Below the pieces are notes generated by a model. It did not search any database. It was not told where the DNA came from and saw nothing but the letters and a program-made list of their open reading frames with translations. The position numbers and the translations under genes were made by a program. From IMG/VR virus record IMGVR_UViG_3300045988_109877, positions 1 to 61,784 of that record: a DNA stretch of 61,784 bases. One strand, written 5' to 3'. Positions 9,921 through 60,244 of the stretch are shown here, piece after piece. The number at the start of each line of letters is the position of its first letter. The first letter of the stretch is position 1. The stretch comes from a virus.

Positions 9921-9931
9921 ATATCTATTTT

Positions 9932-11984: not shown

Positions 11985-12007
11985 TGTAAAAATACCTATA
12001 CACGTAT

Positions 12008-12015
12008 TATATTTG
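12008..12015 (+). promoter_or_regulatory. Bacteroidetes-type -7 promoter box (TATATTTG) for the repressor-like gene
   Basis: It matches TAnnTTTG, lies 34 nt upstream of the ATG at 12049, and is bracketed by direct repeats GTAAAAATACC at 11986-11996 and 12030-12040. Confidence 0.5.
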
Positions 12016-12048
12016 CAAAGAAATTTTAGGTAAAAATACCAATTCAGA

Positions 12049-12492: not shown

Positions 12493-12504
12493 ATATTTTC
12501 GGTT

Positions 12505-12939: not shown

Positions 12940-12943
12940 AAAA

Positions 12944-13654: not shown

Positions 13655-13699
13655 TCTGTCTCCCTTGTCTCTGTAATACCCATACATAAGTCGCCATGG

Positions 13700-14050: not shown

Positions 14051-14063
14051 TGTCGTTGTTGTT

Positions 14064-14387
14064 TTATTCGGTTGTCACTTTGTTTAAATCAATGTCAGGG
14101 GTGGCGGTTCGCTTCTTTCCGCTGCGTGTGGTGTAGCGTATCTTGCCTGTCTCATCGTCCACCCACTTGACAAGGGTGATCACCCCGGACTCCGCATTGC
14201 TCTTGCTCACGCTGACCTCCTTGCGGTTCACTCCGTCGCTCACCACAATGTAGTATTTGACGTTTCCTTTCTTCGTCTCGCCCTGATGTATGCGGGGCGA
14301 CTCCATCGTGATAGTCTGAGACTCTACCCATTTCGCGCTTGCGGTGGATGCTATCAGCAGTGCCACCGCCAAGAAGATTGCTTTCAT
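14064..14387 (-). CDS. Secreted hypothetical protein (107 aa)
   Basis: The signal peptide is MKAIFLAVALLIASTASA. Confidence 0.5.
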   Translation of the reverse strand: MKAIFLAVALLIASTASAKWVESQTITMESPRIHQGETKKGNVKYYIVVSDGVNRKEVSVSKSNAESGVITLVKWVDDETGKIRYTTRSGKKRTATPDIDLNKVTTE

Positions 14388-14420
14388 AATTTGTTATTTA
14401 GTTAGTTAATATTTAAGTTG

Positions 14421-14588
14421 TTAGATGTTGCTCTTTTTGCTACCTTTATACTTGGCGAACAAGCCGATCGCCCAGACGGGGAAGGCTGCCGCCGCATATA
14501 TTGCGGTAAGGTCTTGCGTGTCGGTCACTGCCGCCATCAAGGTGGCGGAGAACAAGGACAGGGACGCAGATGCTAAAAATCGTATCAT
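14421..14588 (-). CDS. Small membrane protein (55 aa)
   Basis: Hand translation gives MIRFLASASLSLFSATLMAAVTDTQDLTAIYAAAAFPVWAIGLFAKYKGSKKSNI. A minus-strand -7 box (TACCTTTG) lies at 14615-14622. Confidence 0.35.
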   Translation of the reverse strand: MIRFLASASLSLFSATLMAAVTDTQDLTAIYAAAAFPVWAIGLFAKYKGSKKSNI

Positions 14589-14747
14589 AGTTCTTTGATT
14601 TTTGAATTACACCCCAAAGGTAATATGTATAACTTTACTAACCAAACAAAAAGTAAAGAAAATGTATTACGTTAACATTGTTTAGTAATTGGTATACACA
14701 TTACTATATATATAATGAGTACCTTTGTGTCATAAACATACAGATAT

Positions 14748-15053
14748 ATGGACAATCTTGACACTATCTTAAAGGCGAAAGGACTGACGAAGACGGCATT
14801 GGCTGACCGCCTCGGCATCAAAAAACAGAACCTTAACGGGCTACTCAAAAATCCAACGCTCTCCACCATCAGGAGAATAGCGGAAGCACTTGACATCAAT
14901 CCGAGAGAGTTGTTTGCCGCAGGCGCGGACGAGGTGACGGCACTGATTGAGTGTGACGGAGAGTTGTACGTGGCGCATGATCTGCGCACACTCCGCCAAT
15001 TGGTCGGAGATTTGGAAATATTGAAATCTGAGAGAGATGGGGCGCAAGGGTAG
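14748..15053 (+). CDS. XRE-family HTH regulator
   Basis: GLTKTALADRLGIKKQNLNGLL is an HTH. A -7 box TACCTTTG lies at 14720-14727. Confidence 0.65.
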   Translation: MDNLDTILKAKGLTKTALADRLGIKKQNLNGLLKNPTLSTIRRIAEALDINPRELFAAGADEVTALIECDGELYVAHDLRTLRQLVGDLEILKSERDGAQG

Positions 15054-20170: not shown

Positions 20171-23100
20171 ATGTCAGACAGAATAAAGACGCTATACGGC
20201 CAATTAGTCAGAAATGGCTATGACTTAGGAGGATATGAGAAATTCAATGCGGCGATGCACGATAGCAACCGCAGACGCAGTCTGTATAATCAGCTTGTTG
20301 CGAACAGGGCAGACTTGGGTGGATATGAGAAATTCAGCAGCGTTGTTGAGACTGCACCACGCACCACCCCGAGCGCACCGCAGAAAAAGCGTGATGTAGT
20401 GGCGGACACCATCAATATGCTCCGCACTCCATCATCGCAGTACACGCGACCGCAACAGACACAACAGACTGCTCCGAAGAAAAAGTGGAGCAACGAAGTG
20501 GATGTGTACTCGTCAATGCCTGATGTGGTAAAGCAATATGCGCCTACACCGACACCGCTGAAGACAGACTCATCGGTGTCAATGCGTTCAGCCGCAACAT
20601 CAACGTGGAATGCCGCTGACAGAGCGACTCGTGAAGAATACGACAGACTGCATCCGAAGAAGGAGGAGTCTTTCTGGGAGAGAGCTGCCCGTCTGATGAC
20701 AGACGCAGAGATGGGGATGGGCAACGAGAATATGGAAAAGGCGACCGATATGCTTGCATCGCACTACAAGACTCACGATTTGCAGAAATTGTCCGACCAA
20801 GCGTGGAACGCACTTGGGGCAACGCAACAGAAAAACATCACAGACGAGGCTTATGATGAGCTGAAGCGACAATATCCGCAAGCGACAGAAAAGGAGCTGA
20901 GAGAAGCAGCGGCTAAGGTAGCGAGAGCCAAGAGCGACGAGACGATGTACAACCTTGCTGTGCAGAAGAATATGCCTGACAATGCCATCTCGTTCTTTGC
21001 GCGGAAGATGGCTGAGGGCAACTCTGTCGCAAGTCTGTTCACTGGACTCGCTCGACAAAAGGCAGGTACTGTCGGAGACTTGGCGGCTGAGACCGAAGCA
21101 AATGAGCGGTATGGCAAAAAGCACAAGGTGGCAGGTATCGCCGGTTCTGTAGTCGGTATGGCATCAGACCCACTGACGTATGCGGCTGGCGGTGTAGGCG
21201 GAGCGGCAACCAAAGGAGCGTTGTGGGCAGGAGGCAAGGTCTTGTCAGAGGCGGCAGCACGCAAGATGTCGCAGACACTCGGAGGCAAACTGCTCCTCGG
21301 TGCGGTAGGCGGAGCGGCTAACTTCGGCACGTTCGAGGCAGGCGGAGAGGCTTTCAACCAATACAAGTGGGGCGGTACTCTCGATGTAGACCCTGAGACA
21401 GGCAGATATGTCGTAGGCGATTTCTCGCTCGGCAAGGTGGCATCACAGATGGGACACGGACTCACGATGGGTGGACTTACGGGTGCATTCGGTACGTGGC
21501 TCGGCAATGTCAGCACCAAAGCGGCACAAGCCACGACAAGCACCTTAGGCAAACTTGGGGTGCGTGCAGGTGAGCTTGGAGTAGGGCTTGTCGGAGAGGG
21601 TACTATATTCGCCACGCCAGAGTTCATCACCACGTATGGCGATTACAACGACATCATCAAGTCTGTCTCCGATAAAAATTCCCCCAACTATATTGCCGAC
21701 GACAAAGAGCGGAGCAAGTATATTGCAGAGCTAAAGGCGCAGAGAGGAGAGCGGATGATGGATATATGGCAAGACAACCTTGCTATGATTGCAGGCTTCA
21801 AGGCACAGCACGCAATCAAGTCAGCAGGACGCACCATCTCCGAGCTGGCGGCATCACGCAGAGGCAAGGTCGGATTTGTGGAGCGCATGGGCAGGATGCT
21901 TGACGGGCATCCAAGCCTCGCCCTGAGCAAGGAGGAGCAGGCAGAGTTGGACAAGCACGGCTATGGAGACTTGACACAGATGGTCAAGGAGTACAAGGTG
22001 TATGCTCAAAAGGACGGAGACTTGCCGTACAACAAAATCACGCAGTTGCTCAACGACAAAAACGTAAGCGAGGCGGCAAGGGCAAAGATGTACTACTATG
22101 TCACAGGGCACTCCTTGCCAATGTCGGCAGTGATTGCGTCCAACGTCATTGACAATGGCGATAAGACATACACCGTGCAGTCGTTGGGCGACAATGGTGT
22201 AATCACAAGCAGGACTTACGGGAGCCGCAAGAGAGCGGACTATGAAAAGGCTCGCATCGATAGGCAAGCAGAGCTCAACGGAGTGGCGATGGCAGAGCAG
22301 ATGTTTGACAATATGGACAAAGCCGAGCGGCTAAAGGCTGTCTGCACAAGGCTCGCCCAAGACAAGGGAGTGTCGCCGGAGACACTGCTATGGCTGACAC
22401 ACAAAGACCCAAAGCAGATGACCGCCGCAGAAAAGCGGTGGATAAAAGAGATAGAGGCTGCCGCCAACGAGGATGCTCCGCAGGGCGAGAACGCCACAGT
22501 GAGACACATCAAGGGCGTCATTCTTGACGAGTATGGTGTTGATGTAGACAAGGCATTGCGCAAGGCGGCGGACAGCCGCACCGATGCGGAGAAAACAGCC
22601 ATATCGGCTTACAACAACGAATTGGTGCAGGCGGTCGCAGAGCGCAAAAATGCCATTAGCCAAGGCGAGACGACTGACGCATACAGACGTGGTTACGAGG
22701 CAGACACGCAAGGGATGCGTGATGCCTACGTGGCGCAGATGTATGAGCCGAGCGAGGATAATGCCGAGACACTTAGAGGGGTGGAGTCGCAAATCACGGA
22801 GAGTGCCAAATATCAAGCGGCATTGGAGAGAGACGAGCTAAAGCAGATGACACATAAGGACGGCTCCATACATCTTGCCACGCTTAAAGATAAAGACAAG
22901 GACGGCAATGGCAAGCAAGTGTACATAGTAGACGGCGACATTGTGATGAAGGAAGACGGGAGCGGCATTGACGCAGACGCAAGCAGTAAGAGCGTCATCA
23001 TATACGACCCGGCTACTGGAGAGAAAAAGATGGTGTCACCGACTGCGGTTGACGGCATAGAGTCGCTTGGCGAGGTCAAGACGGCAGAGCAGAGAGAGGC

Positions 23101-26100
23101 GGAGATAAACGCACATATGCAGGACACCATCCAGCGAAGCAAGGATTGGTTGGAGGGCAACGTAGCCAACCCTGTCGGTATGCAGATACAATTGGGTGAC
23201 GGACGTATCGCCACCATAGAGGCGATGCACGAAGACGGTAAGTCAGCCATAGCGACACTCCCTGACGGCACTCAGTTTTTGGTGCCGAATGACGTGTTGC
23301 AGAGAATCGTCAACAACGGGCAGTATGCGGATTACAAAGCGAGGAGAGATGCCGAGGCAAGCAAACGAGAGGCAGAGCAAGGCACCGAGAGCGCACCGGA
23401 GACAGCCACGGAAGGCGGACAGCCATTGCCGGAGGAGGCTTCCCCTAAAGAGGAGGAGCGCAGAGAGTATGCGCAAGGAGACGTGTTTGATGTCGTGGTG
23501 GACGGCAATAAGATGCACGCAGAGATAGTGTCACCAAAGGACGCAGACGGAAGGTTCGTTGTCAATGTGGATGATGGCGAGTCTATGCGCACTCTGTATG
23601 TCACCCCGGAGGAGTTGGCTGCGATGGAATACAGAGAGGAGCCATCGCCAAAGGCGGAAGAAACAAGGCTTGCCACCGAGGATTCCTCGGATAAGGCATT
23701 GGAGAGAGGAGAGACGCCGGAAGAATTGTTGCAGTCAATCAAGGAAAACGAGGCGGCAGTGGCGGAAGCACAGAGGACGGTCGATGCTTGGAAAGCCATC
23801 GTAGGAGAGAAGTCACGCAGAGAGGAAGCCGCCAAAGCGGAAGCGGAGCGCATAGCGACCGAGAAGGCGGAGGCGGAAAGGAAAGCCGCTGAGGAGCGTG
23901 AACGTGCCGAGGCGGAGGAAGAAGCTCGTGTTGAGGCAGAGAAGAAAGAGGCAGAGAGGATTGCCGCAGAAAAGGCTGAGGAGGAAGCTCGTGTTGAAGC
24001 CGAAAGGAAGGCAGAGGAGGAGCGCATTGCTAAGCAGAAGACTGAGGAGAAGGTTGACAGTCCGAAGATTGACAAGCAGGGGAATCCAATTGACGCTGAA
24101 GGCAGACTGATAACTGAGAAAGTTGAAGACATCAGCGATTTGTCTGACGATGATTTCAACAATCCGAAACGTTCTGTTGAATTGCCTAAGATACCGAAGA
24201 ATATAGATAACGCTCTCGGTGCGAACGGCAAGCCTGTTATTATCAAGAAGAATATATTCGAACGGAACAAGAACGCTCATTCAGACTTAACGGCAGAGCA
24301 GAGCCGAGAAATACTTAAAACAGCGCTGTACTCGGCTGATTTGTATGCTAAGAACCAAAAATCCAAGCGCCCATTCAATTGGGTAATTATCAAAACAAAA
24401 GACCACGATGGTAAAAACAAACTTGTCCTCTTGGAAGTTAACGACAACAAGGACAATGTGGAAATTGTGCATTGGCACTATCTTGATGACCGAGGCCTTG
24501 AAAAAATAAAAAAGCAAGCCGAACGTGAGGGCGGGCAACTCCTCATACTGCCTTCTGAAAAAGAAGAGGCTGGTGCCCTTTCCAGCCGTACATCCGACTT
24601 GCCTGCTGACAAAGGTAGTGAAAAGGCGGAGAAGAAGCAAGAAAAGCAGAGCGTTTTTGACAAGGCTAAGGAGATTGCCGACAAGGAGGAGAAGAAACGC
24701 AAGGCTGAGGCTGAGGATGACAAGCCAAAAGAACAGTCGCTGACTGAGGCGGAGCGCAAGGACGCCGAGGAGGTTGCAGGTGCGTTGGGCTATCGTGTGG
24801 AATGGGTGGACACGATGGCGGAGAACGGAACGATAGACGCGGACAAGAAAGTGATCCGTATCGCAAAGGATGCCGAGAACCCGTTGGTGCAGGTGCTGGG
24901 ACACGAGGTGGCGCACGGAGTGAAGCGGATGGACGGTGGCAAGTTCAAGGCTTTGCAGAAGGCGGCTATGGAAGTCGTCGGCGAGAAGGAATGGAATGAA
25001 CGCATCGAGAAGAAGCGCAATTTGAATGCTTATGCCGAGGGGAAACTCGCCGAGGAGGTGACGTGCGACATCGTTGGAGAGGCGTTGAACGACAAGGATG
25101 CGTTGAAGCGTCTTGCCGAGTCGCTGAGAGGAGAGAGGGGCATCCTTGCCCGTCTGCGTGACGCAGTGGTGAGGATGGTCGAGTATTTCAAGAACAGAGG
25201 CGACAAGGAAGGTGTGCGCAGGATGAAGGCCGCCGACAGACTTCTCGCAGAGTTTGAGAGTGCGTTGAAGGAGGGCGTTGCACCAGAGCAAGTCAAGCCT
25301 GAAGGTGTAGACCGCAGTGTAAGGGAGAGCCGAAGCGAGAAGACGGAGTTGACAGCGGAGGAGCGGGAACTGAGGGACAACCTTGTGGAGCGTATGCGCA
25401 AGGGTGGACTTGACGTGGTGACTGATTCGGAAGAGATGCAGAGAGTCATAGACACCGAGAACGAGCGGACAAGGATGATGGGTGCCGGTTCAGTCCGTGA
25501 GCATCGTGTGTACCACGGCAGCGGAGCGGACTTCGATGCTTTCGACCACTCGCACATGGGCGAGGGTGAAGGTGCGCAGGCTTACGGTTGGGGCACTTAT
25601 GTGACCGAGGTGGAAGGTATCGGCAGGACGTATGCTATTCAGAATACAACGAAGCACAACGATGCTTTACGTGCATTGCAACACGATGTAGATGCTATAT
25701 CTGACCAACTTAACAGACACCGGGATGATTTGAAGTATGACGAAGAACAGCTAAAACGTGCTAACGAATGGAGAGCCGAGGCTGAACTTGACTATGAATT
25801 GTTCAGAGATGAAGCTGAGAAATTAAAGGAAAAATATGGGGAGGCTTCTCCTAAATACCGAAATCATCTGTTTAATGACATCTATACAGATGAAATGAAA
25901 CGTGCTCAAAGTTCAGTTAAGAGCACAGAAAAGTCAATCCAGTATCGCAAGGAGAAAATAGCAGAGTTGGAAAAGGCATTAAAGGATAAGCAAGCGGAGA
26001 TTGATGAACTGCCGAAGGAGTTTCCACGCCACCTTTACACCGTAGAAATCCCCGATGACAACGGCAGCAACTATCTGGATTGGAATGGACACCCTGCTGA

Positions 26101-29100
26101 ATCTTTACTGAAAGATGTAGGTTCGTTTTTGGAGAGTGAAGGCTTTGAGAGGGTACAGGATGATAACCCTGCCAGATATGAGAAAGGCGAAAGCACCGTT
26201 GTTTTGAACCCCAATGCGACTGGAGCTGATTTGTATGCGGAATTGCGTGAGGCTCTTGGCAGTGACAAGAAAGCGTCACAAGCATTGGCTGAGTTAGGCT
26301 GTATTGGTATCAAATATCCTGCTGACAATATGCGAGGTGGCCGTGAGGATGGCGCAAAGAACTACGTTATCTTCAACGAGAATGATACGAAGATAACCGC
26401 CCATACACGCTTTCTGCGGACAGCAGGCGGAGAGGTGTACGGCTTGGTGAAGGACGGACGCATATACCTTGACCCAAAGGTGGCTACAGCGGAGACTGCG
26501 GTACACGAATACACGCATCTGTGGGGCGATATGCTGAGACGCAAAGACCCAGAGCAATGGAGCCACACGGTGAAGGAACTGAAGAACAGCGTTCTTTGGG
26601 AGGAAGTGAAAGAGTCGTATCCGGAGCTGAAGACCGATGACGAGATAGCGGACGAAGTGTTGTCGACGTTCAGCGGACGCAGAGGAGCGGAACGCTTGCG
26701 CGAGGAGGCACGTAGGGTTGCCGATGGCGAGGGCGGAGTGTTCACCAAGGCGAAGGCTATCGAGACGTTGGAGCGAGTGAAGGAAGCCATAGCGCGGTTC
26801 TGGGAAGGCGTGGCGAGGATGTTCGGCATCAACCGCTACCGCAGTGCCGAGGAGTTGGCTGATATGGCTATGAGGGACTTGCTTGACTCCAAGAATCCTA
26901 TGAAGGATGAGAGCGGAATGAGAAAGCGAGGAGAGGTTGGCGAGACGCTTGCCACGTCAGGCACATATTTCAGCGGAGGCGGACTGCTTGAAGCAGGTCT
27001 GAAAGGCGTGATAGACCCGAAGGTTGCGGTTGAGTTCAGCGAGAAGATAGCAGGAGTGTATGCCGACAACCACGGCAACCACATTGTTGTGGCAGACGTG
27101 AGGGATGTTGACCCCAAGAAACTTGTGGGCGCGGTTGACGGAGGCGAGGTGCAGTACTTCCACGCATCTCCGGTGTGCAAGAACTTCTCCAAAGCCAAGC
27201 GAGAGGGAGGCGAGGTTGAACTTGACAAGGAGACAGCGTTGTCGACAGCCGAGTTTATAGCGAAGACAAGACCGAAGGTGGTGACCATAGAGAACGTAAA
27301 AGGCTACCGCAACAGCGAGGCGTTGAAAATCATCACTGACGAGCTTACCCGTCAAGGATATGACTGGGATGCCGATGTGTACAACGCGGCAGACTACGGA
27401 GGCTATACGAAAAGAGAACGGCTGATAGTGCGAGCCAAGAGAGACGGCAAACTTCCTCCCAAGCCGGAGAAACTTCCCGAAGAACTGAGGAAGAAGGGAT
27501 GGTATAGCGCGGTGGAAGATTTGATTCCACACCTTGAAGAGAAAAAGACAGGTGTTCCGCAAGGCACTGACGAGCGGTTGAAGAACAGCGGAATAGACTA
27601 CCGCACCATTGACAAGCCTTTGTATGTGTTCGGACGTGGCTATGCCAACAAGACCGTAGGGCACGCTTTTGCCGATGAGCTTCTGCCAACGCTCACCACC
27701 GGAGGCGGAGACATCATAATAATGCCTGACGGCAGGGTGCTTAAAGCGTCACCGAGGGTGCTTGCGAGAGTCACTGGGCTGCCCGACACGTACAAGATGC
27801 CTGAGACAGACCAATTGTCGCACACCATAGTCGGCAACGGCATCCCAACGCAGTTGACCGAAGGTGTCATCGCTCCTTTGCTTGACAATGCCATTCCGTC
27901 TGCCGAGCGAGCCACCAAGCGTGAGAGCGTGTTTGACGTGGCGGATAGAGTGTCGCAGAACCTTGAGGAGCGGACGAGGGCGATGGCTGAACGCATTGCA
28001 GAACAACCTGTTGAAGAAATAAACAATCGGTTTAATGAGGAGCTGGAGAAGTACCAAAACAACGAATTGCCAAAAGGCCATCGCTTTGAATTAGGTATGC
28101 CATCAGCAGAGTTGCAAAGTGCTGGTTTCCCAACGCTCCCAATAAGTATGCGTTCTTCGTTGTTGGCGAAAAAAGCCGGAGCGGAGAGACATCCTTTTGC
28201 CCCCACTGACTTACGAGACTTGGTAAACGCAATACAGAAACCTATAGCTATCTTCAATTACTCTAAAAATAATATGCGCAATCTGATTGTAGATGTATCG
28301 CGCGGAGGAAAGCATTTCTTGGTTGGAGTGACACTCAACTATAAAGCAGACAATATAGAAATAAACAGTGTTTCTGGATTATTTCCTAAAGAGAACCACG
28401 AATGGATAAAATGGATTCAAGATGGAAAAGTATTGCGAATAGACCAAAAAGAAAAGGTTCAAGACCTGATTAACAGTCTACGGACTAATCCCGCTGAGTC
28501 TGAAAGAATCGGTTTGAACCTTGATGATGTGGCAAAGAAAGTGAAAGATTTTGAAAATCCCAAGCTTTTTGATGGAAAAATTTCAGAAGTAGACAAAAAG
28601 GGTTCAGATTCAACCGACCGCTCCGTCAGAGAGAATCCCAAAAACGAGGATAAGCCACGCTTCAGCAGAAAGCCGGGCGAGAGCATCTTCGACTATGCGT
28701 CACGTGTGTCGGAGGACGTGGATAGAAGCGTGAGAGAAAGAGTAAGCGCACGGGACGAGTATGAGAAGAAGGTCAAGAGCAAAGGCTTCCAAACGAAGGA
28801 GGCGTTGCAGAACAGTATGCTCGGACTACAGGAGTTTATGCTTGCAATAGACCACGCATCGGGCAACAAGCGGTACATAGAGGACATTCCCGACTTTGAG
28901 AATCCGATACTCGGAGAGAACCGCCTGTCGTCGGTGAACAAGGAGGAGATGCACCAAGTTGCCAAGACGCAATTCAAGCCGTTGATGTCGGCAGTGGCCA
29001 AACTGAGCGGCAACGGCAAGGAGAGCGGAGAATTGTACGACTATATGTTCGCCAAGCACGGACTTGAACGTGATGCCGTGATGCGGCAGAGAGAGGCTCA

Positions 29101-31834
29101 GAAAGAGTTTGACAAGTACCAAAAGGCAAATCCCAAAGGAACTAAAACGATTGGGGATTTCGTTGCAAGCCTTGAAGGCAAAGACTATGCAGGACTTACG
29201 GCATTGACGGCAGAAGACGGCAGGGTGAAGTCGATACAATCGCAGATAGACGCCATAGACGAGCAGATGAAGGCTACAGACGACCAATTGTTGCTCCGTA
29301 AACTCGGTGGTCAGAAGAAGCGGTTGAAGGTGGATTTGCTCAACGCCGCAAGGGATGCCGCCGATGACATCCGCAAGGCTTTTGAAAACAATCCGAGCCA
29401 TGATCGGTCAGACATAAATGAATTGTGGAGTCGAGTAAACGAAGTGAACGGCAACACAATTAGGAAGTTGTATGAGAGCGGTATGCTCACGAAGGAGGCA
29501 TACAACGACATCAGCAGTATGTATACGAATTATATCCCTATGAGGGGATTCGACCAAACGACAAGCGCGGATGCCTACGCTTATCTGACGCACGGCGACA
29601 GCGCATTCAACGCACCGATAAAGACAGCCAAAGGGCGCAGCTCCAAGGCTGACAATCCTATAGCATATATGCAGGCGATGGCGGAAAGTGCGATAATGCA
29701 GGGCAACCGCAACGTATTGGTGAAACAAAAGATGTTGAACTTTGTGCGCAACCATCCGAGCGACCTTGCGAGTGTCAGCGATGTGTGGTTGCAATATGAC
29801 TCGGTTGCAGATGAGTGGAAGCCGGTGTTTCCCGACAATATCGGTGCCAATGACAGCGCATCTGTGGTGGCGAAAAAGATGGAGGCATTCGAGGATAAAA
29901 TGAAACAGATGGCAGAGAAACACCCGGACTTGGTGCAAAGAAGCAACGAAGCACCTGACATCCCATATAAGGTGGTAGAGAAAGGGCAGTTGAACGAACA
30001 CCAAGTGCTTGTGAAGCAAAATGGCAAGTCTTACATCATCACAGTCAACGGCAGCCCAAGAGCGGCACAGGCAGCGAATGGCTTGACGAATCCGGACACA
30101 GACCTTACGGGCGCAGTCGGTAAAGTCTTCGAGGGAGCCGAGGCGTTGAACAGACAATTGTCCTCCTTATACACCACGTTGAACCCCGACTTCATTGGCT
30201 CAAACTATGTGCGAGATGCCTTGTACTCAAATACAATGGTGTACGTCAAGGAAGGAGCTAAGTATGGTGGTTCCTTTAATCTCAATTTCGCCAAATACAA
30301 TCCAGCGGAAATGGCGAACCTATATGCAAGTTACAACAAAGGCAGCCTTGACACATCCAATGAAACGCATAGACTGTTTTTGGAGTTTATGCAGAATGGC
30401 GGAGAAACTGGCTTCGTGAACCTAAAGCAGATAGAGAAGAGGAAGTCGGAGATAGCGAAAGCAATCAAGCGGGATGGGAGAATATCCGCGGCACAAATTT
30501 GGGGCGGTTTGAGCGATGCCGTTGATTTCGCCAACAGGGCAGTAGAGAACAGCGCAAGGTTTGCGGCATATGTCACGTCACGGAAGAGCGGACGCAGTGT
30601 AGGAAGGTCAGTATATGACGCAAAAGAGATTTCTGTCAACTTCAACAGAAAGGGAAGCGGCTCTAAATTTATGGGAGCGGAAGGACAGACCAAGGCAGGA
30701 AACGCCGCCGCTTTTGTGTCGGGAGCCGGAAGAGGCTTGTATATCTTTTGGAACGCAGGTCTTCAAGGACTCACTAACTTCTCAAGACAGATAGGGAGAC
30801 ATCCTGGCAGAGCGTTGACATTGGCGTCATTGCTGTTTGGCTTTGGTGCATTGATGTCGTATTTAGGGAATAGAGACGATGACGATGAAAACAATTACTT
30901 CAATCTTCCCAAGTATATCCGCAGAAGCAACGTCTGCTATAAGATTGGAGATTTGTTTGTCACGATTCCCCTTCCCGTTGAGTATCGGTCATTCTATGGA
31001 CTTGGAGAATTGGCGAGCAGCACACTTGCCGGAAAAGAGGACGGAACGACAAAAGACATCGCCAAAGAAGCGGTTTCACAAGTATCGCAGTTGTTCCCTA
31101 TTGACTTTGCAGAAGGAGGCGGAGGACTGCACGCATTGATTCCGAGTGCCGTAAAGCCGATAGTAGAGGCAGAAACCAACACCGCATGGACAGGTCTGCC
31201 GATTTATAAGGACAATGATTTCAACAAGAATATGCCAGAGTACACGAAAGTGTATAAGACCGCCAATAGGCATCTTGTTGAGATAGCGAGAGCGTTGAAC
31301 GATGCCACAGGAGGCAACAAGTACAAAAAAGGCTTTATAGACATAAATCCTGCGAAAATGGAATATGTCCTCAAGGGTATGCTCGGAGGAGCGTTCAGTT
31401 TCCCAGACAAACTTGTCAAAACAACAGAGACGATTATGGGCGACCGTGAATTTGATTGGCGGAACACACCTTTTGCCAACAGATTCGTGAAGAACGCAGA
31501 CGAGAGGACGGAGTACAAGTCTTTGAACGAACAATACTTTAAGTTGAAAGATGAAATGGATGTCGTCAAACAACAGCTGAAAGGCTTTGAAAAAGAAGCT
31601 GATGCCGGGAACGAAAAATACGAAAAGGCTCTGCTTCAATTGGAGGACAGCAAAGATTATGAAAGGTTGGAATTATTCAAGGATTATGAGAAGGAACTTA
31701 AAGGCTTGAACGATGAACTCAAGGAACTAAGGATGTCTCCTGATTATGACAAGGCAGAAGAAAAAGAGTTGCAAAAAGAGATTGCGGAACAACAGAGACA
31801 ATTGATCGACGAGATGAGAGAAATTAAAAAATAA
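20171..31834 (+). CDS. Giant polyvalent protein (3887 aa) with multiple enzymatic modules
   Basis: This is an uninterrupted 11.66-kb ORF. Features by coordinate:
- HEVAH at 24902.
- YHGSGADFDAFD...GWGTYVTE at 25511-25600 (ART-like H/Y).
- HEYTH at 26504.
- C5-MTase motifs at 26950-27900.
- Two related domains of about 130 aa at 24170-24560 and 28010-28460.
- E/A/K coiled coil at 23800-24060.
- Gly-rich hydrophobic segments at 21125-21640 and 30690-30870. Confidence 0.85.
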   Translation: MSDRIKTLYGQLVRNGYDLGGYEKFNAAMHDSNRRRSLYNQLVANRADLGGYEKFSSVVETAPRTTPSAPQKKRDVVADTINMLRTPSSQYTRPQQTQQTAPKKKWSNEVDVYSSMPDVVKQYAPTPTPLKTDSSVSMRSAATSTWNAADRATREEYDRLHPKKEESFWERAARLMTDAEMGMGNENMEKATDMLASHYKTHDLQKLSDQAWNALGATQQKNITDEAYDELKRQYPQATEKELREAAAKVARAKSDETMYNLAVQKNMPDNAISFFARKMAEGNSVASLFTGLARQKAGTVGDLAAETEANERYGKKHKVAGIAGSVVGMASDPLTYAAGGVGGAATKGALWAGGKVLSEAAARKMSQTLGGKLLLGAVGGAANFGTFEAGGEAFNQYKWGGTLDVDPETGRYVVGDFSLGKVASQMGHGLTMGGLTGAFGTWLGNVSTKAAQATTSTLGKLGVRAGELGVGLVGEGTIFATPEFITTYGDYNDIIKSVSDKNSPNYIADDKERSKYIAELKAQRGERMMDIWQDNLAMIAGFKAQHAIKSAGRTISELAASRRGKVGFVERMGRMLDGHPSLALSKEEQAELDKHGYGDLTQMVKEYKVYAQKDGDLPYNKITQLLNDKNVSEAARAKMYYYVTGHSLPMSAVIASNVIDNGDKTYTVQSLGDNGVITSRTYGSRKRADYEKARIDRQAELNGVAMAEQMFDNMDKAERLKAVCTRLAQDKGVSPETLLWLTHKDPKQMTAAEKRWIKEIEAAANEDAPQGENATVRHIKGVILDEYGVDVDKALRKAADSRTDAEKTAISAYNNELVQAVAERKNAISQGETTDAYRRGYEADTQGMRDAYVAQMYEPSEDNAETLRGVESQITESAKYQAALERDELKQMTHKDGSIHLATLKDKDKDGNGKQVYIVDGDIVMKEDGSGIDADASSKSVIIYDPATGEKKMVSPTAVDGIESLGEVKTAEQREAEINAHMQDTIQRSKDWLEGNVANPVGMQIQLGDGRIATIEAMHEDGKSAIATLPDGTQFLVPNDVLQRIVNNGQYADYKARRDAEASKREAEQGTESAPETATEGGQPLPEEASPKEEERREYAQGDVFDVVVDGNKMHAEIVSPKDADGRFVVNVDDGESMRTLYVTPEELAAMEYREEPSPKAEETRLATEDSSDKALERGETPEELLQSIKENEAAVAEAQRTVDAWKAIVGEKSRREEAAKAEAERIATEKAEAERKAAEERERAEAEEEARVEAEKKEAERIAAEKAEEEARVEAERKAEEERIAKQKTEEKVDSPKIDKQGNPIDAEGRLITEKVEDISDLSDDDFNNPKRSVELPKIPKNIDNALGANGKPVIIKKNIFERNKNAHSDLTAEQSREILKTALYSADLYAKNQKSKRPFNWVIIKTKDHDGKNKLVLLEVNDNKDNVEIVHWHYLDDRGLEKIKKQAEREGGQLLILPSEKEEAGALSSRTSDLPADKGSEKAEKKQEKQSVFDKAKEIADKEEKKRKAEAEDDKPKEQSLTEAERKDAEEVAGALGYRVEWVDTMAENGTIDADKKVIRIAKDAENPLVQVLGHEVAHGVKRMDGGKFKALQKAAMEVVGEKEWNERIEKKRNLNAYAEGKLAEEVTCDIVGEALNDKDALKRLAESLRGERGILARLRDAVVRMVEYFKNRGDKEGVRRMKAADRLLAEFESALKEGVAPEQVKPEGVDRSVRESRSEKTELTAEERELRDNLVERMRKGGLDVVTDSEEMQRVIDTENERTRMMGAGSVREHRVYHGSGADFDAFDHSHMGEGEGAQAYGWGTYVTEVEGIGRTYAIQNTTKHNDALRALQHDVDAISDQLNRHRDDLKYDEEQLKRANEWRAEAELDYELFRDEAEKLKEKYGEASPKYRNHLFNDIYTDEMKRAQSSVKSTEKSIQYRKEKIAELEKALKDKQAEIDELPKEFPRHLYTVEIPDDNGSNYLDWNGHPAESLLKDVGSFLESEGFERVQDDNPARYEKGESTVVLNPNATGADLYAELREALGSDKKASQALAELGCIGIKYPADNMRGGREDGAKNYVIFNENDTKITAHTRFLRTAGGEVYGLVKDGRIYLDPKVATAETAVHEYTHLWGDMLRRKDPEQWSHTVKELKNSVLWEEVKESYPELKTDDEIADEVLSTFSGRRGAERLREEARRVADGEGGVFTKAKAIETLERVKEAIARFWEGVARMFGINRYRSAEELADMAMRDLLDSKNPMKDESGMRKRGEVGETLATSGTYFSGGGLLEAGLKGVIDPKVAVEFSEKIAGVYADNHGNHIVVADVRDVDPKKLVGAVDGGEVQYFHASPVCKNFSKAKREGGEVELDKETALSTAEFIAKTRPKVVTIENVKGYRNSEALKIITDELTRQGYDWDADVYNAADYGGYTKRERLIVRAKRDGKLPPKPEKLPEELRKKGWYSAVEDLIPHLEEKKTGVPQGTDERLKNSGIDYRTIDKPLYVFGRGYANKTVGHAFADELLPTLTTGGGDIIIMPDGRVLKASPRVLARVTGLPDTYKMPETDQLSHTIVGNGIPTQLTEGVIAPLLDNAIPSAERATKRESVFDVADRVSQNLEERTRAMAERIAEQPVEEINNRFNEELEKYQNNELPKGHRFELGMPSAELQSAGFPTLPISMRSSLLAKKAGAERHPFAPTDLRDLVNAIQKPIAIFNYSKNNMRNLIVDVSRGGKHFLVGVTLNYKADNIEINSVSGLFPKENHEWIKWIQDGKVLRIDQKEKVQDLINSLRTNPAESERIGLNLDDVAKKVKDFENPKLFDGKISEVDKKGSDSTDRSVRENPKNEDKPRFSRKPGESIFDYASRVSEDVDRSVRERVSARDEYEKKVKSKGFQTKEALQNSMLGLQEFMLAIDHASGNKRYIEDIPDFENPILGENRLSSVNKEEMHQVAKTQFKPLMSAVAKLSGNGKESGELYDYMFAKHGLERDAVMRQREAQKEFDKYQKANPKGTKTIGDFVASLEGKDYAGLTALTAEDGRVKSIQSQIDAIDEQMKATDDQLLLRKLGGQKKRLKVDLLNAARDAADDIRKAFENNPSHDRSDINELWSRVNEVNGNTIRKLYESGMLTKEAYNDISSMYTNYIPMRGFDQTTSADAYAYLTHGDSAFNAPIKTAKGRSSKADNPIAYMQAMAESAIMQGNRNVLVKQKMLNFVRNHPSDLASVSDVWLQYDSVADEWKPVFPDNIGANDSASVVAKKMEAFEDKMKQMAEKHPDLVQRSNEAPDIPYKVVEKGQLNEHQVLVKQNGKSYIITVNGSPRAAQAANGLTNPDTDLTGAVGKVFEGAEALNRQLSSLYTTLNPDFIGSNYVRDALYSNTMVYVKEGAKYGGSFNLNFAKYNPAEMANLYASYNKGSLDTSNETHRLFLEFMQNGGETGFVNLKQIEKRKSEIAKAIKRDGRISAAQIWGGLSDAVDFANRAVENSARFAAYVTSRKSGRSVGRSVYDAKEISVNFNRKGSGSKFMGAEGQTKAGNAAAFVSGAGRGLYIFWNAGLQGLTNFSRQIGRHPGRALTLASLLFGFGALMSYLGNRDDDDENNYFNLPKYIRRSNVCYKIGDLFVTIPLPVEYRSFYGLGELASSTLAGKEDGTTKDIAKEAVSQVSQLFPIDFAEGGGGLHALIPSAVKPIVEAETNTAWTGLPIYKDNDFNKNMPEYTKVYKTANRHLVEIARALNDATGGNKYKKGFIDINPAKMEYVLKGMLGGAFSFPDKLVKTTETIMGDREFDWRNTPFANRFVKNADERTEYKSLNEQYFKLKDEMDVVKQQLKGFEKEADAGNEKYEKALLQLEDSKDYERLELFKDYEKELKGLNDELKELRMSPDYDKAEEKELQKEIAEQQRQLIDEMREIKK
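26950..27900 (+). other. Embedded C5 cytosine methyltransferase domain within the polyvalent protein
   Basis: YFSGGGLLEAG (motif I), HASPVCKNFS (variant of motif IV with Cys retained), VVTIENVKG (motif VI), YTKRERLIVRA (motif VIII-like), VGNGIPTQL (motif X). Confidence 0.7.
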
Positions 31835-52690: not shown

Positions 52691-53941
52691 TCAGTCAAGC
52701 AAGTCCACAAGCTCCTTCTTGATGTCGTCGTCGATGTTGCGGTAACGAGAGAAAGCCTTGCTTCCATCCTTGTGACCGGACATAGAGCCGACAAGATTGG
52801 GGTCTTTGACCTGTTTGTAAAGATTGCCTATGAACGTCCTGCGTGCAAGATGGGAGGAGGCTATCTCGTTGATTGGTCTGCGCACCTCGCATCCTTTGGA
52901 AGAATCATAGACAAGCACCGACCTTGTTATGCCGCAGATGGTGAAGAACCGCTTTATGGCTGCGTTATATGCTTGGTCTGCGATGAAAGGGAACAGCCTG
53001 CCGTCCTTGTCCACTCCCATATATTTCTTCACAAGCATCCGCGCGCTGTTGTTCAGCGGCACTCTGACGATGTCGGTATGCTCGCTCCGTGTCTTCCGGG
53101 GGATATACTCCACGGCTCCGTTGACAATATTGTCGGTAGTCAGCCTTGTAAGGTCGGACACACGGCAGCCTATGCAGCACTGGAACAGGAAAATATCTCT
53201 CTGCACCTCGAGGGACGGGTAGTCGGACAAGTCGTAGTTGGCGATGCGGTTGCGTTCCGCTATGCTTATATAATAAGGTGTGCCGTATCTCTCCGCTTTC
53301 ACCGACACATTGTCGGTCGGAGAGCGGTCGATGATCCCCAGCGTCACCATCTCCTTGAACAAAGAACGCAGACGTTTGAATGTAGTGCATATATAGTTTG
53401 CTCCGCCAATCTTCTCCACATCCTTGATGTAAGACAGGAATTTCCTAACGTCATCCTCCGACATCGTTTTCAAAGTAAGACTGTATGAAGGGGAGTATTT
53501 ACGTCTGAACACCTCGAAACTTTTCAGTTTGTTCTTCAGCACCTCATATCCTCGCAACGTTCCCAAAGCAATGTTCTTGTGGGCGAGCAGGTCGGCAAAT
53601 TCTTCATCGAGAACCATCGGTTCTTCCTTGTCTTCCGGATTTAGAACGTCCTCCACCATTCTCTGCAAGTCACGGCTTGTGCGTATGTCCGCATAGTGGG
53701 AGGAGTAGACACGCATAATGATGTCCTTGAGATAAGCCACCTTGTTGTCCACATCTTCCCTATAAGCTATCTGGCACATCGCACGCTGTTTGATGCATTC
53801 TTTTTTGGAATCCCATAGGGATGGGTACACCATAATATGGCTGATGAAGTATAACTGCACCTTGCGCCCGTCACTCAGACGGAAGCGTATTTTGACCTCG
53901 GAATCTTTGGTCGTTCGGATGAATGCTTTGATTGTTGCCAT
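52691..53941 (-). CDS. int: Tyrosine recombinase / phage integrase (Bacteroides type)
   Basis: I chose the start MATIKAFIRTTKDSEVKIRFRL (arm-binding N-domain). The catalytic residues are CRVSDL (Arg), SHLARRTF (HxxR), SGH and FSRY (Tyr). Confidence 0.85.
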   Translation of the reverse strand: MATIKAFIRTTKDSEVKIRFRLSDGRKVQLYFISHIMVYPSLWDSKKECIKQRAMCQIAYREDVDNKVAYLKDIIMRVYSSHYADIRTSRDLQRMVEDVLNPEDKEEPMVLDEEFADLLAHKNIALGTLRGYEVLKNKLKSFEVFRRKYSPSYSLTLKTMSEDDVRKFLSYIKDVEKIGGANYICTTFKRLRSLFKEMVTLGIIDRSPTDNVSVKAERYGTPYYISIAERNRIANYDLSDYPSLEVQRDIFLFQCCIGCRVSDLTRLTTDNIVNGAVEYIPRKTRSEHTDIVRVPLNNSARMLVKKYMGVDKDGRLFPFIADQAYNAAIKRFFTICGITRSVLVYDSSKGCEVRRPINEIASSHLARRTFIGNLYKQVKDPNLVGSMSGHKDGSKAFSRYRNIDDDIKKELVDLLD

Positions 53942-53958
53942 ACGCAAAGGTATGAAAC

Positions 53959-54185
53959 TTGCACAACACTTGCACAACATTTGCACAACATATTTGTTAT
54001 TGGTTGTAATTATTTAATACTATCTGTATAATCAAACATTTCAAAATGCTGATTGTTAAGTGATATAAAAGCAAATCAAGTGAACGGCTAACAAACAACG
54101 TTGTCCGGGTAAGACAACAAGGGTAGTTTGACTATCAGAAAGTTATGGTGGATGTGCGGTGGATTTGCACAACATTTGCACAACA
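53959..54185. promoter_or_regulatory. attP-like region: five direct TTGCACAACA repeats in two clusters flanking an AT-rich segment of about 175 bp
   Basis: The copies are at 53959, 53970, 53981, 54165 and 54176, with an 11-nt period inside each cluster. The region lies directly upstream of int. Confidence 0.5.
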
Positions 54186-57972: not shown

Positions 57973-58818
57973 TTAAAGCTCTGTTTTCTCGTTTACTCGT
58001 TCGAACCGCTTGCACGCAGGGCGCATCTGCGATGCGTTGTATGAAGGCCACTTGCAATGTCCTTTTGCGGCGACCTCGTATCTGTAGTTGGCGCACACTC
58101 CACAGCAACGGAACTTGTCTGCCTGTGCCACGCTGATGCTCTTCAGCTCTCTTATGGCAGCGTCAATGCAAGCCTCCAATGCCGCCCGCTTGCGTTTGTT
58201 CACTTCGTTCACCTGTGCTGCCACGCTCTTCTCCTCGATGGCGATACACGCTTTTTGTATCGCTACGAGGTTGTTGATGCTCGGAGGGGTTATCTTCAGC
58301 GGCACTTCCGCGCATGCGGCTGCAAGACGTTCTGTGTATTCCTCGGCAAACTCAATCGCCATAAGCGAGAGAAACCGCACCACCTCACTCTGTGCGTTTA
58401 TGTCGGAATCCTCGACATCGTAATTGAGAGAGCGGATAAATTCCTCCACATTAAGGCGGAGGAGCGAGAACACCTTCTTCGTGTCCTCGAAGAAGCGGTA
58501 TTCTAAGAACTGCATCAATTGCAGTTCCGCACCGAACATTCCTCCAGTCAACTCCTTGTTGAGAGAACGAATGGCGTTGCCGAGGTCGCAACTGACACGC
58601 TTGTAGATAAGTTCTCCTCTGTTGTTGGTCTTGAAGTTGAAGCATAAATAGCGGAGCCTTTCCGCCTCACGGATCGTGAGCAGTGCAATGAACAATGGTT
58701 TAAGCACGAGGTTTCTGACCTTGCACGGCTGGAGCGGTTTTGGTGGCAGCTCTGGAGCCACGGCAGTGCGTCTTGCGGTCGCTGCCGTCAGTCTGATGGG
58801 GAATAGTATCATTGACAT
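57973..58818 (-). CDS. Hypothetical protein (281 aa) with a C-terminal Cys cluster
   Basis: CCGVCANYRYEVAAKGHCKWP...RPACKRF suggests a zinc-binding tail. The function is otherwise unknown. Confidence 0.5.
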   Translation of the reverse strand: MSMILFPIRLTAATARRTAVAPELPPKPLQPCKVRNLVLKPLFIALLTIREAERLRYLCFNFKTNNRGELIYKRVSCDLGNAIRSLNKELTGGMFGAELQLMQFLEYRFFEDTKKVFSLLRLNVEEFIRSLNYDVEDSDINAQSEVVRFLSLMAIEFAEEYTERLAAACAEVPLKITPPSINNLVAIQKACIAIEEKSVAAQVNEVNKRKRAALEACIDAAIRELKSISVAQADKFRCCGVCANYRYEVAAKGHCKWPSYNASQMRPACKRFERVNEKTEL

Positions 58819-59399
58819 TCGTTGATAAATCGTTCTTGTTGTTTCTGGAAAAATTCTTTGTTTATCTCACAACCTACAAAGTCAAAGCCGAGATTATACG
58901 CGGCTATCCTTGACGAGCCACTGCCTAAATGCGTGTCAAGAATCTTGTCGCCTTGCTTTGCAAAGGTCTTAATGAGATATTCGTATAAAGCCACAGGTTT
59001 CTGCGTTGGGTGTATACGTTTCTGTCTGAATAGATGACTGAATAGTTTCGCTGGCGCATTGAACGATGTCCACAAGTATTCGCACGCAGAAAAGTTCTTC
59101 CACGGCTGTCGCTTGTCCCACACAACGAAACATCTGCAAGGAGGAAGATCGAAATAGTTTCCACCGCAAATTATCTGATTCTTCGACACGCGGAACAACT
59201 CCTGGAAATATTCATCCGTAGGCGGAATATCCCATTCCATCGGCATTGTGTTCAACGCCCTTATGCACTTCTTGCCTCCTGTAATGCCTGCGCCACTCGC
59301 TTTAAGACCATAAGGAGGATCGACAATGGCTAAATCAAAAGCCTTGTCGGGGAGAGTCCGCATATACTCTATGCAGTCAATGTTGTACGCTATATTCAT
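58809..59399 (-). CDS. Beta-class N6-adenine/N4-cytosine DNA methyltransferase
   Basis: AIVDPPYGL (motif IV DPPY) precedes ILDTHLGSGSSRIAA (motif I). This is the N-4/N-6 MTase order. Confidence 0.85.
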   Translation of the reverse strand: MNIAYNIDCIEYMRTLPDKAFDLAIVDPPYGLKASGAGITGGKKCIRALNTMPMEWDIPPTDEYFQELFRVSKNQIICGGNYFDLPPCRCFVVWDKRQPWKNFSACEYLWTSFNAPAKLFSHLFRQKRIHPTQKPVALYEYLIKTFAKQGDKILDTHLGSGSSRIAAYNLGFDFVGCEINKEFFQKQQERFINECQ

Positions 59400-59402: not shown

Positions 59403-59436
59403 AAAAAAGAAAGGGAGGAAACCGATACTTCCTCCC
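59403..59436 (-). terminator. Intrinsic terminator abutting the methyltransferase start codon
   Basis: The minus strand reads GGGAGGAAgtatcggtTTCCTCCC followed by TTTCTTTTTT, then CC and the ATG at 59399. Confidence 0.7.
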
Positions 59437-59450
59437 TGTTGTCCTCTGGG

Positions 59451-59610
59451 GTTAAAGTTTTTTATCTACAATAGTAGAAATTAGTTCGTTTCAATCCACA
59501 GCCTTTCGGCTGACAAAATTTTGAATCGATTTTTGTTTAAATCCACAGCCTTTCGGCTGACTCCTTCGGACACCACAGAGATAGTGAAGAGAGTATCGTA
59601 AATACAAAAA
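59451..59610. repeat. 14-bp inverted repeat bracketing the CRISPR-repeat-like units
   Basis: GGGTTAAAGTTTTT at 59451-59464 and its reverse complement AAAAACTTTAACCC at 59597-59610. Confidence 0.85.
59464..59561 (-). CRISPR. Orphan CRISPR-repeat-like units: two type I-C-like repeats (27 nt) and one Cas12a (type V-A) crRNA handle, with no cas genes
   Basis: The minus strand reads GTCAGCCGAAAGGCTGTGGATTTAAAC (59561-59535), a 20-nt spacer, GTCAGCCGAAAGGCTGTGGATTGAAAC (59514-59488), GAACT, then AATTTCTACTATTGTAGAT (59482-59464). Confidence 0.65.
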
Positions 59611-59644
59611 CTTTAACCCAATTAACAGAGGGAGGTTAATAATG

Positions 59645-60244
59645 TTAAATAAAATCGTAAATGGCGATATCGCCTTGTGGGTTCTTCTTGTTCTTCTTGT
59701 TGCGCCTCCACGCATAGGCGAACGGCATAAACTTCTCATACCACCGTGCGTCCTCCATCATGGAGCCTACATACTGGGTAAGGTTCGGCTTGTAGTCAAA
59801 CTCCACAATCTGCGCCCAGTCGCCCTTGCGGTTGCCACCGAAGAGGTGCATCAACTTGTTGCCTTTACTCCAATCTTGGCAGAACTCCTTGAAGTAAAAA
59901 ACATTATGGTTTTGCTTGTCTGGGTCTTCGAGAATCAGACGAACAAAGGCAGTTTGATTGTAGCGAATCATCAGTCTGTCCAACTTCACCAAGACATCGA
60001 TAGGCTTGACCTCGTGTGTGCATTCGTAAAGTCCGTGGGCGAAGTAAGGTTCGCCCTGCTTTGTGAAGCGGACGCGCAAGTCGAAGCATCGTGCGCCATC
60101 GTACCACTGTTCCTCAATTGTCTTGCGCTGACACCGAGCGAACGGAATCATAAACCATCCATACCACTTCTGCGGTCGGAGATAGGTCATTGAATTATGT
60201 GTGCCGATTATCGGCGTACCTTGTTTCTGTTCCATTGTCTTCAA
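59645..60244 (-). CDS. PI-PLC X-domain-like phosphodiesterase
   Basis: IIGTHNSMTY (catalytic His motif), CFDLRVR (Arg) and YFAHGLYE (second His) match the bacterial PI-PLC / PLC-like TIM barrel pattern. Confidence 0.5.
   Translation of the reverse strand: MKTMEQKQGTPIIGTHNSMTYLRPQKWYGWFMIPFARCQRKTIEEQWYDGARCFDLRVRFTKQGEPYFAHGLYECTHEVKPIDVLVKLDRLMIRYNQTAFVRLILEDPDKQNHNVFYFKEFCQDWSKGNKLMHLFGGNRKGDWAQIVEFDYKPNLTQYVGSMMEDARWYEKFMPFAYAWRRNKKNKKNPQGDIAIYDFI

Follow-up and report, generated by a model that had tools for sequence, protein, structure and literature searches.

A cassette between two genes of a phage genome carries, on a single strand, look-alikes of CRISPR repeats from both classes of CRISPR-Cas system, and it probably encodes a composite RNA anti-CRISPR (Racr), a decoy directed against class 1 and class 2 systems together. 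The cassette lies on the minus strand of IMG/VR virus record IMGVR_UViG_3300045988_109877, of which positions 1 to 61,784 were analysed (hereafter the window), between an unannotated gene and a DNA methyltransferase gene. Three repeat-like units are packed into 98 nt: two units resembling type I-C repeats (59561-59535 and 59514-59488) and one exact copy of the type V-A CRISPR RNA (crRNA) handle of Cas12a (59482-59464). No significant match to cas genes was obtained in the window by tblastn with I-C and V-A Cas proteins as queries. An original prediction, based on the letters of the window, had described repeat look-alikes of two classes without cas genes and had proposed a candidate RNA anti-CRISPR chimera. 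All of the elements that it listed were found on the minus strand, its description was right apart from small details, and the core of its interpretation is supported here and broadened by the recurrence of the same combination in a family of phages and prophages.

Both I-C-like units are built from a GT overhang, a hairpin closed by C and G, and a tail of the form TGGATT[T/G]AAAC. Unit 1 (GTCAGCCGAAAGGCTGTGGATTTAAAC, 59561-59535) consists of GT, the stem-loop CAGCC-GAAA-GGCTG and the tail TGGATTTAAAC; unit 2 (GTCAGCCGAAAGGCTGTGGATTGAAAC, 59514-59488) has the same overhang and stem-loop followed by TGGATTGAAAC, the canonical I-C tail. Genuine I-C repeats share this format of GT, a C...G stem-loop and TGGATTGAAAC, and the tail of unit 2 is identical to those of the repeats of Bacteroides coprophilus (GTCGCACCCTGCGTGGGTGCGTGGATTGAAAC; PMC3374615) and Xanthomonas oryzae (GTCGCGTCCTCACGGGCGCGTGGATTGAAAC; PMC8406640). 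The tail of unit 1 was recovered by a metagenome scan in a genuine I-C array (L193) of 54 repeats of GTCTCCCTTCGTGAGAAGGGAGTGGATTTAAAC with 33-35-nt spacers, situated directly downstream of cas3-cas5d-csd1-cas7-cas4-cas1-cas2 (region 3147-14778); it also takes the place of TGGATTGAAAC in the genuine I-C arrays L168, L170, L171, L187, and L191. The nearest named relatives of the L193 Cas8c are from Clostridia, not Bacteroidota, and the array validates the tail variant, not the host. Each window tail is thus 11/11 identical to genuine I-C repeats (T and G variants), which bears out the claimed likeness to I-C, and because TGGATTTAAAC proved genuine too, the two units copy both natural tail variants (TTTAAAC and TTGAAAC). 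The 27-mer motif was matched twice in the 61.8-kb window and not once in 100 shuffles.

The Cas12a handle (AATTTCTACTATTGTAGAT, 59482-59464) occurs once in the window, as an exact match, compared with a mean of 0.02 matches in shuffles when as many as 3 mismatches were allowed. As predicted, it corresponds to the real thing: it is 19/19 identical to the handles of genuine V-A arrays L044 and L166, the latter comprising 42 repeats adjoining cas12a-cas4-cas1-cas2; the handle of L049, likewise a genuine array, is the same. The Cas12a loci L164 and L166 are from Bacteroidota. At 9908-9990 of L164, which is a metagenome contig of Bacteroidales, one lone V-A repeat (GTCTAAACGATTTTTAAAATTTCTACTATTGTAGAT) and a short sequence lie just downstream of cas12a with no array; this element may be CreR-like and of host origin. 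A scan anchored only on the I-C tail and on hp2, the hairpin that separates this tail from the handle in most clades, recovered about 64 family members. The handle is exact in 55 of them and differs only in the loop in 3 more; about 6 have suffered single-base damage or a deletion in it. The handle has a single-base change or small deletion in L223, L226, L263, L282, and L292 and is lost in L279; these may be decaying copies.

Covariation was measured on 39 distinct phage units, aligned by anchoring on GT and the tail and padding with N, MAFFT having misplaced the hairpins. Stem cells of the I-C-like hairpin were paired in 96.6% of cases, as compared to 25-42% in slid registers; both sides had changed in 5/6 pairs, and 61 double-change cells were counted against 17.9 ± 4.3 in shuffles. 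The tail, in turn, varies essentially at a single position (TGGATT[G/T/C/A]AAAC), and the stem of the Cas12a handle never covaries, unlike its neighbouring hairpins. In published structures, the Cas12a handle and the 11-nt I-C 5' handle are read base-specifically by Cas proteins. Fixed sequence at the bases read by Cas proteins, combined with free covariation elsewhere, is the pattern that mimicry under selection predicts.

The two kinds of mimic appear to overlap. The window handle lacks the normal 17-nt 5' part of a V-A repeat, and genuine V-A repeats can start with ATTTAAACG, for example in L044 (ATTTAAACGACTAATTAAATTTCTACTATTGTAGAT) and L049. A GAACT linker (59487-59483) corresponds, in truncated form, to the covarying hp2 of other clades; taken with ATTGAAAC, it looks like the 5' portion of a full V-A repeat, and ATTGAAACGAACT plus the handle resembles a complete V-A repeat from which a short internal stretch has been deleted. 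The tail of unit 2 may thus do duty both as an I-C tail and as the 5' section of a V-A repeat of full length. The I-C reading stands nonetheless, because GT-hairpin-TGG has no V-A counterpart and because no handle comes after unit 1. The last 8-9 nt probably serve both mimics, which would make the design an overlapping one.

More than 60 distinct phage or prophage loci join an I-C-like unit to the identical Cas12a handle. An exact scan of IMG/VR with the I-C-like unit of the window yielded 10 close relatives, to which L203 and L204 were later added; relatives in the window clade bear one or two such units, and their cassettes measure 216, 225, 262-266, or 273 nt. The wider pattern TGGATTGAAAC-N(0-25)-handle was found in 36 IMG/VR contigs, in several unrelated genomic contexts, and at 11 loci in GTDB genomes, of which 9 were prophage-like and 2 were genuine V-A arrays. 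The prophage-like loci are titled Segatella copri, Leyella stercorea, Prevotella spp., Prevotellamassilia, and Tannerellaceae bacterium, along with three metagenome-assembled genomes of other phyla that we suspect to be mis-binned; genomes with a prophage copy include Segatella copri HDE04 (NZ_CP152346.1), Leyella stercorea An906, and Prevotellamassilia timonensis. When the handle alone was used for scanning, the I-C-like unit reappeared unforced. Among GenBank phages, blastn matched only the methyltransferase gene and found no relative of the intergenic cassette. In most clades the order is a -7 box (TAnnTTTG), the I-C-like unit, hp2 (4-5 bp), the Cas12a handle, a further hairpin (hp3), and a terminator. 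Most other clades have the RNA as a gene of its own, with the Bacteroidota-type -7 box placed a few bases before the GTC, and it is often antisense to neighbouring genes.

A third type of repeat is present in part of the family. At 22 distinct handle sites, one or two copies of TTTAATCG(T/A)ACCTTTATGGAATTGAAA(T/G) also lie upstream, enclosed by a covarying long-range stem (CGGAAG/CTTCCG in some, CGGAGGG/CCCTCCG in others); carriers include L041 (4380-4590), L047, L050, L071, L077, and about 20 other loci. These copies are near-exact to GGTTTAATCGTACCTTTATGGAATTGAAAT, the 30-nt CRISPR repeat with which Devoto et al. linked Lak megaphages to Prevotella (PMC6784885). Because copies of this repeat have been added, the relatives concerned mimic three repeat types, and because the repeat is a Prevotella repeat, the family is tied to Prevotella-type hosts. 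Gut Bacteroidota commonly have I-B, I-C, and II-C systems (PMC11307328). Judged from the sequences, stacking repeats of several host systems is the organising principle of this family. Cas12a, for its part, occurs in Prevotella.

The hairpin hp3 also bears some likeness to a repeat. Its stem begins with C in 48/65 cases and mostly ends with G, resembling the 5' part of an I-C repeat, and it is followed by TGG, CGG, or CGT in 37/65 cases. In 47/65 cases it lies 32-34 nt past the I-C tail, which is the length of a genuine I-C spacer. This spacing may reflect design, a nested I-C mini-array with a Cas12a repeat as its "spacer", or may arise simply because hp2 (14 nt) and the handle (19 nt) add up to it.

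Other arrangements were encountered alongside the family. L065, L081, L123, and L139 contain a different composite, formed by GTCCTTCAATGGAATTGAAAC, the Cas12a handle, a hairpin, CTTTTAATCGTACCAGAAGGATTTTAAAAG, and a terminator, and in L104 the handle is combined with an I-B-like and an I-C-like unit. Unrelated solitary Cas12a handles with the loop GTG or ATG occur in L053, L075, L124 (two copies), and L142, probably in phages of another host group; the helix that closes around them (CGGAAG...CTTCCG, leader with tail) recalls the leader-tail pairing of the window, and a terminator flanks them as well. In L062, around 4539-4557, the handle, hp3, and terminator are kept and other sequence stands in place of the upstream I-C-like unit. 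Since L062 retains the handle part without that unit, the modules of the cassette are separable.

The segments that follow the mimics are not guides. The 20-nt segment between the I-C-like units (AAAAATCGATTCAAAATTTT, 59534-59515) had been taken for an unusually short spacer. In the single-unit relatives L001, L002, L007, and L010, the linker and the six bases that open the Cas12a handle read AAAAATCGATTCAGAATTTC, with which the segment is identical at 18/20 positions. Based on that identity, the segment is best read as the scar of a recombination that inserted the second unit, comprising a linker and the remnant of a handle start. Downstream of the handle, the 26-nt tail (AAAAAACTTTAACCCCAGAGGACAAC, 59463-59438) forms the 3' arm of a long-range helix: AAAAACTTTAACCC in the tail (59462-59449) and GGGTTAAAGTTTTT in the leader (59619-59606) make up a 14-nt inverted repeat, 100% complementary and 143 nt apart, and CAGAGG (59448-59443) pairs with CCTCTG near the 5' edge (59631-59626) as an outer 6-bp helix in the minimum free energy (MFE) fold. 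Counting G-U pairs, the predicted helix extends over about 26 bp, outward through CCUCUG/CAGAGG and inward into the 3' half of the handle, with which TATTTACGATA (59604-59594) can pair by means of G-U wobbles. The fold as a whole has a predicted MFE of -80.8 kcal/mol (z = -5.75), and 0/200 shuffles fold as well. Because the tail is locked in this predicted helix with the leader, it is no free crRNA-like guide. The suggestion that the handle and tail form a stand-alone crRNA or hijack guide is accordingly not supported, in view of the 14-bp perfect helix and of the lack of any TTTV-flanked target of the tail in IMG/VR. The tail was considered as a self-targeting Cas12a guide against the leader DNA and rejected, given that the site of the protospacer adjacent motif (PAM) reads AATA, not TTTV, and position 1 is mismatched. 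A miniature inverted-repeat transposable element with terminal inverted repeats was likewise rejected, as the 14-bp inverted repeat is internal and the conserved edges of the cassette lie further out.

The rest of the family agrees. In other clades the 24 nt past the handle have a mean MFE of -6.2 kcal/mol, as compared to -0.9 kcal/mol for 53 real V-A spacers, and 83% of these segments reach -4 kcal/mol or lower versus 0% of the real spacers (Mann-Whitney p = 6e-12). The post-handle segment is paired in every clade, by a local hairpin elsewhere and by the leader-tail helix in the window clade, which fits a deliberately non-guiding decoy. Searches of IMG/VR with 19-mers of the 20-nt segment and of the tail found no protospacers; apart from members of the family, the few matches were to unrelated coding sequences lacking a proper PAM or seed, in roughly the number expected by chance. 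Examined as a genuine array, the cassette offers two 27-nt units, one handle without its 5' part, and no cas genes, and does not qualify.

Drawing on these features, we infer the following course of events. The cassette would be transcribed on the minus strand within the flanking operon, as a non-coding RNA ended by its own terminator. It would present two sites to Cas5c, the I-C endoribonuclease, one for each natural tail variant, and one site, the 19-nt handle, to Cas12a. Host Cas5c and Cascade subunits, and Cas12a, would bind and cut the mimics as they do precursor crRNA, with predicted cuts at G|TGGATT for Cas5c and just 5' of AATTTCTACT for Cas12a. The products would then carry no usable guide, the I-C units being followed by the 20-nt scar or by the Cas12a hairpin and the handle by the helix-locked tail; with nothing after the mimics able to serve as a guide, the resulting ribonucleoproteins would be dead ends. 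Titration into such complexes would deprive the phage-targeting crRNAs of two classes of their Cas proteins at the same time.

A more elaborate form of the decoy, which we put forward tentatively, is a nested, multi-valent mimic, each CRISPR system reading the same piece of RNA in its own way. In most relatives, hp2 and the handle (33 nt), which together make up the Cas12a repeat, lie exactly at spacer distance between a full I-C-type repeat and a second I-C-type hairpin. Cuts by Cas5c at both hairpins would therefore free a mimic of a complete I-C crRNA with a folded Cas12a repeat in the place of its "guide". From that transcript Cas12a, in turn, would cut out a dead crRNA of its own, and the upstream 30-nt Prevotella repeat would be offered to a third system. 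In this form, an RNA of about 130-220 nt might disarm up to three subtypes of two classes, and the window clade would represent a rearranged version, with two I-C variants and V-A.

The remaining parts of the cassette frame the mimics. Its conserved 5' edge (59645-59620, minus strand; TTAACATTATTAACCTCCCTCTGTTAATT) follows two different upstream genes in relatives, and the leader arm (59619-59594) begins with GGGTTAAAGTTTTT and continues with GTATTTACGATA into a 32-nt hairpin region. That leader hairpin (CTCTCTTCACTATCTCTGTGGTGTCCGAAGGAG, 59593-59562) is present in both the MFE and centroid folds and is conserved in L001-L010; it has no Rfam match and could be matched to none of the repeat types. 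The gap between the leader arm and unit 1, given earlier as 35 nt, is actually 44 nt. The locus starts at about 59645-59619, slightly beyond the 59611 first proposed. At the 3' end, an intrinsic terminator (59437-59402) combines AGGGAGGAAG and TTTCCTCCCT around a loop, with 11 pairs, 5 of them G-C, and a T-rich tail; the hairpin proper occupies 59437-59412. The sequence CCTCCCTCTG at the 5' side of the cassette could compete with the terminator stem. The region is not strictly free of open reading frames (ORFs), as had been stated: a mechanical 82-aa ORF (59491-59739) overlaps the cassette. It is judged non-coding because the indels of relatives there are not multiples of 3. No Rfam family reached its gathering score anywhere in the window, and at E ≤ 10 the locus gave only weak matches to CRISPR-DR9, DR47, and DR2, below threshold with E > 5.

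The window contains tailed-phage genes for a portal, a large terminase (TerL), a major head protein, a DnaB-like helicase, and an integrase (52691-53986, minus strand; phrog_1, E = 1.4e-23), and because of the integrase gene the phage is probably temperate. The portal gene is immediately preceded by one ORF of 3,887 aa (20171-31834, plus strand). Downstream of the cassette, the predicted DPPY methyltransferase was confirmed (58809-59399, minus strand; Pfam N6_N4_Mtase, E = 4.7e-18, with the DPPY motif visible in the sequence). Its ATG at 59399 is 5 nt past the terminator T-tract, and for that reason its expression seems to need read-through. A second DNA methyltransferase is encoded elsewhere (2793-3785, minus strand; phrog_116, E = 8.9e-57). 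The upstream gene is a 199-aa ORF with its TAA stop at 59647-59645. It had been described as phospholipase C (PLC)-like: no family was matched by the window protein, and the homologue in one relative reaches only a marginal PI-PLC-X score (E = 4.6e-5; 23.5 bits, where the cutoff is 23.1). The orphan methyltransferase gene beside the cassette is missing from L002-type relatives, in which the cassette is retained, abutting directly a 97%-identical homologue of the window gene at 57973-58818; in some other relatives a different gene lies upstream. Since both the methyltransferase and the upstream gene differ among relatives, the cassette occupies a variable accessory spot. In L041, L011, and L002, the neighbouring genes have no recognisable Acr (anti-CRISPR), Aca (anti-CRISPR-associated), or other annotation.

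Several observations weigh against a decoy directed at both classes. The stems of the I-C mimics are only 5-7 bp and the units 27-31 nt, as compared to 32-34 nt for genuine repeats, and the array scan found no genuine array with such short I-C units; lacking that counterpart, recognition by Cas5c is a prediction only. The motif ATT[T/G]AAACG also opens genuine V-A repeats (L044, L049), which leaves part of the I-C-tail signal ambiguous. In the window clade, the predicted helix hides the 3' half of the Cas12a handle along with the tail, and such sequestration could impede binding by Cas12a in the absence of remodelling or processing of the RNA. The link to Prevotellaceae holds for relatives of the cassette and not by way of the window phage's own host. 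Finally, no known Acr or Aca gene was recognised near the cassette, the small neighbouring ORFs being without annotation.

Four other explanations have to be set against the composite decoy. The one with most to recommend it, though still unlikely, is a regulator resembling the viral crRNA-like regulatory RNAs (Cracr), in which the segment after a mimic guides Cascade or Cas12a to bind, and not cut, the promoter of cas genes or of a CreT-like toxin, so that immunity is silenced; the candidate guide for Cas12a would be the tail and, for I-C, the 20 nt between the units. A single pseudo-repeat with a pseudo-spacer of about 21 nt and a terminator does have the shape of CracrVA1, crRNA-like RNAs of type I with short spacers are reported to exist, and the window clade conserves the core AAAATCGATTCA of the 20-nt segment. 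This segment is nevertheless accounted for as a linker and handle remnant, and the tail in the window pairs with the leader. In the wider family the pseudo-spacers form covarying hairpins in which no PAM-proximal seed is conserved, and the Cracr arrays described are always of a single type. At the other extreme, a viral mini-CRISPR array whose 20-nt or 24-nt segment is loaded by host Cas proteins against competing phages is hardly credible and is largely refuted. The layout of repeat, short segment, and repeat is right, and such mini-arrays are known in viruses (PMC11656645), but the I-C segment is 20 nt where genuine spacers are 33-35 nt, the V-A tail is paired with the leader, the 19-mers match only the family and a chance-level number of coding sequences without PAM or seed, and the segments are conserved, not variable, between relatives.

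The other two explanations turn on the flanking genes. Host Cas5c and Cas12a might be borrowed simply as RNases to separate or stabilise parts of a phage polycistronic mRNA, leaving immunity unaffected. No TAnnTTTG promoter precedes the cassette in the window clade, so that the cassette there is probably co-transcribed, and the methyltransferase ATG so close behind the T-tract points the same way. Most other clades, by contrast, have a stand-alone gene with its own promoter and terminator, often antisense to its neighbours, and reliance on non-essential, strain-variable host genes would make mRNA processing fragile; we regard this explanation as improbable. A cis-acting structured leader or attenuator controlling read-through into the methyltransferase or genes further downstream, its likeness to CRISPR being incidental or the vestige of a decaying captured array, is slightly more improbable still. 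Such a role would make use of the complementarity of CCTCCCTCTG to CAGAGG and part of the 5' arm of the terminator, which permits an anti-terminator alternative, and would be in keeping with the strong overall fold (z = -5.75). It does not sit well with the recurrence of the mimics in many unrelated contexts, with purifying selection on protein-contact sequences and covariation of stems, or with the relatives that keep the cassette without a methyltransferase.

The composite decoy has its closest known counterparts in the Racrs, which are solitary repeat units (Camara-Wilpert et al. 2023, Nature; PMC10651486). RacrIC1 and RacrVA1-3, directed at I-C and V-A, respectively, have been validated experimentally, each against a single type, and the SRUFinder pipeline of that study retained only repeats not associated with other partial repeats (PMC10651486). 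Like a Racr, the cassette is encoded by a phage outside of any CRISPR-cas locus and mimics both the sequence and the hairpin of a repeat without a functional spacer; by analogy, aberrant complexes would be expected to form on it and to trap Cas processing or effector proteins. It differs in bringing two I-C-type units and one V-A unit onto one RNA, to which relatives add a third type, in spanning class 1 and class 2, in its shortened I-C stems, and in the partial overlap or nesting of its units, the I-C tail being the 5' end of the V-A repeat. In relatives, moreover, the V-A repeat lies at spacer distance between two I-C-type hairpins. With three repeat-like units within 98 nt, the cassette is not a solitary repeat and hence no plain member of the Racrs.

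Likeness to other known systems is partial as well. The Cracrs include multi-unit arrays that are "always" of the same type, and such arrays are listed only for Pseudomonadota, Bacillota, and Actinomycetota, with none from Bacteroidota (Liu et al., bioRxiv 10.1101/2024.10.29.618823). The V-A part of the cassette has the corresponding build of a pseudo-repeat, a short pseudo-spacer (the 26-nt tail), and an intrinsic terminator, and the cassette multiplexes its units, subtype I-C being represented by its T and G tail variants side by side. It departs from a Cracr in mixing I-C-type and V-A-type units on one transcript and in having base-paired pseudo-spacers, where a Cracr needs a pseudo-spacer seed that matches a host promoter. 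CreR and CreA of hosts (PMC10120712) share the plan of a single degenerate repeat, a short sequence, and a terminator, but are host-encoded and adjoin and regulate cas genes, whereas the cassette is phage-borne and mixes repeat types. Viral mini-CRISPR arrays (PMC11656645) likewise place a short segment between repeats in a virus without cas genes; in the cassette this segment is 20 nt, conserved, and without protospacers, and the repeats are of different types. No description of a mixed-type composite was found in the searchable literature on Racrs, Cracrs, and repeat mimics, in agreement with the original prediction, and within that scope the cross-class architecture is new.

RNA anti-CRISPRs have so far been known as single repeat mimics or arrays of one type; here, several subtypes from both classes are mimicked, partly by overlapping sequence. 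The composite decoy yields concrete predictions that can be tested in the existing heterologous assay strains for I-C and V-A, and it would provide a natural design for small, genetically encodable inhibitors of several Cas systems (Cas12a and Cascade). If the reading is true, phages of a dominant genus of the human gut counter hosts equipped with several CRISPR systems by means of one broad-spectrum decoy. That would account for the failure, perhaps frequent, of CRISPR targeting of Prevotella phages.

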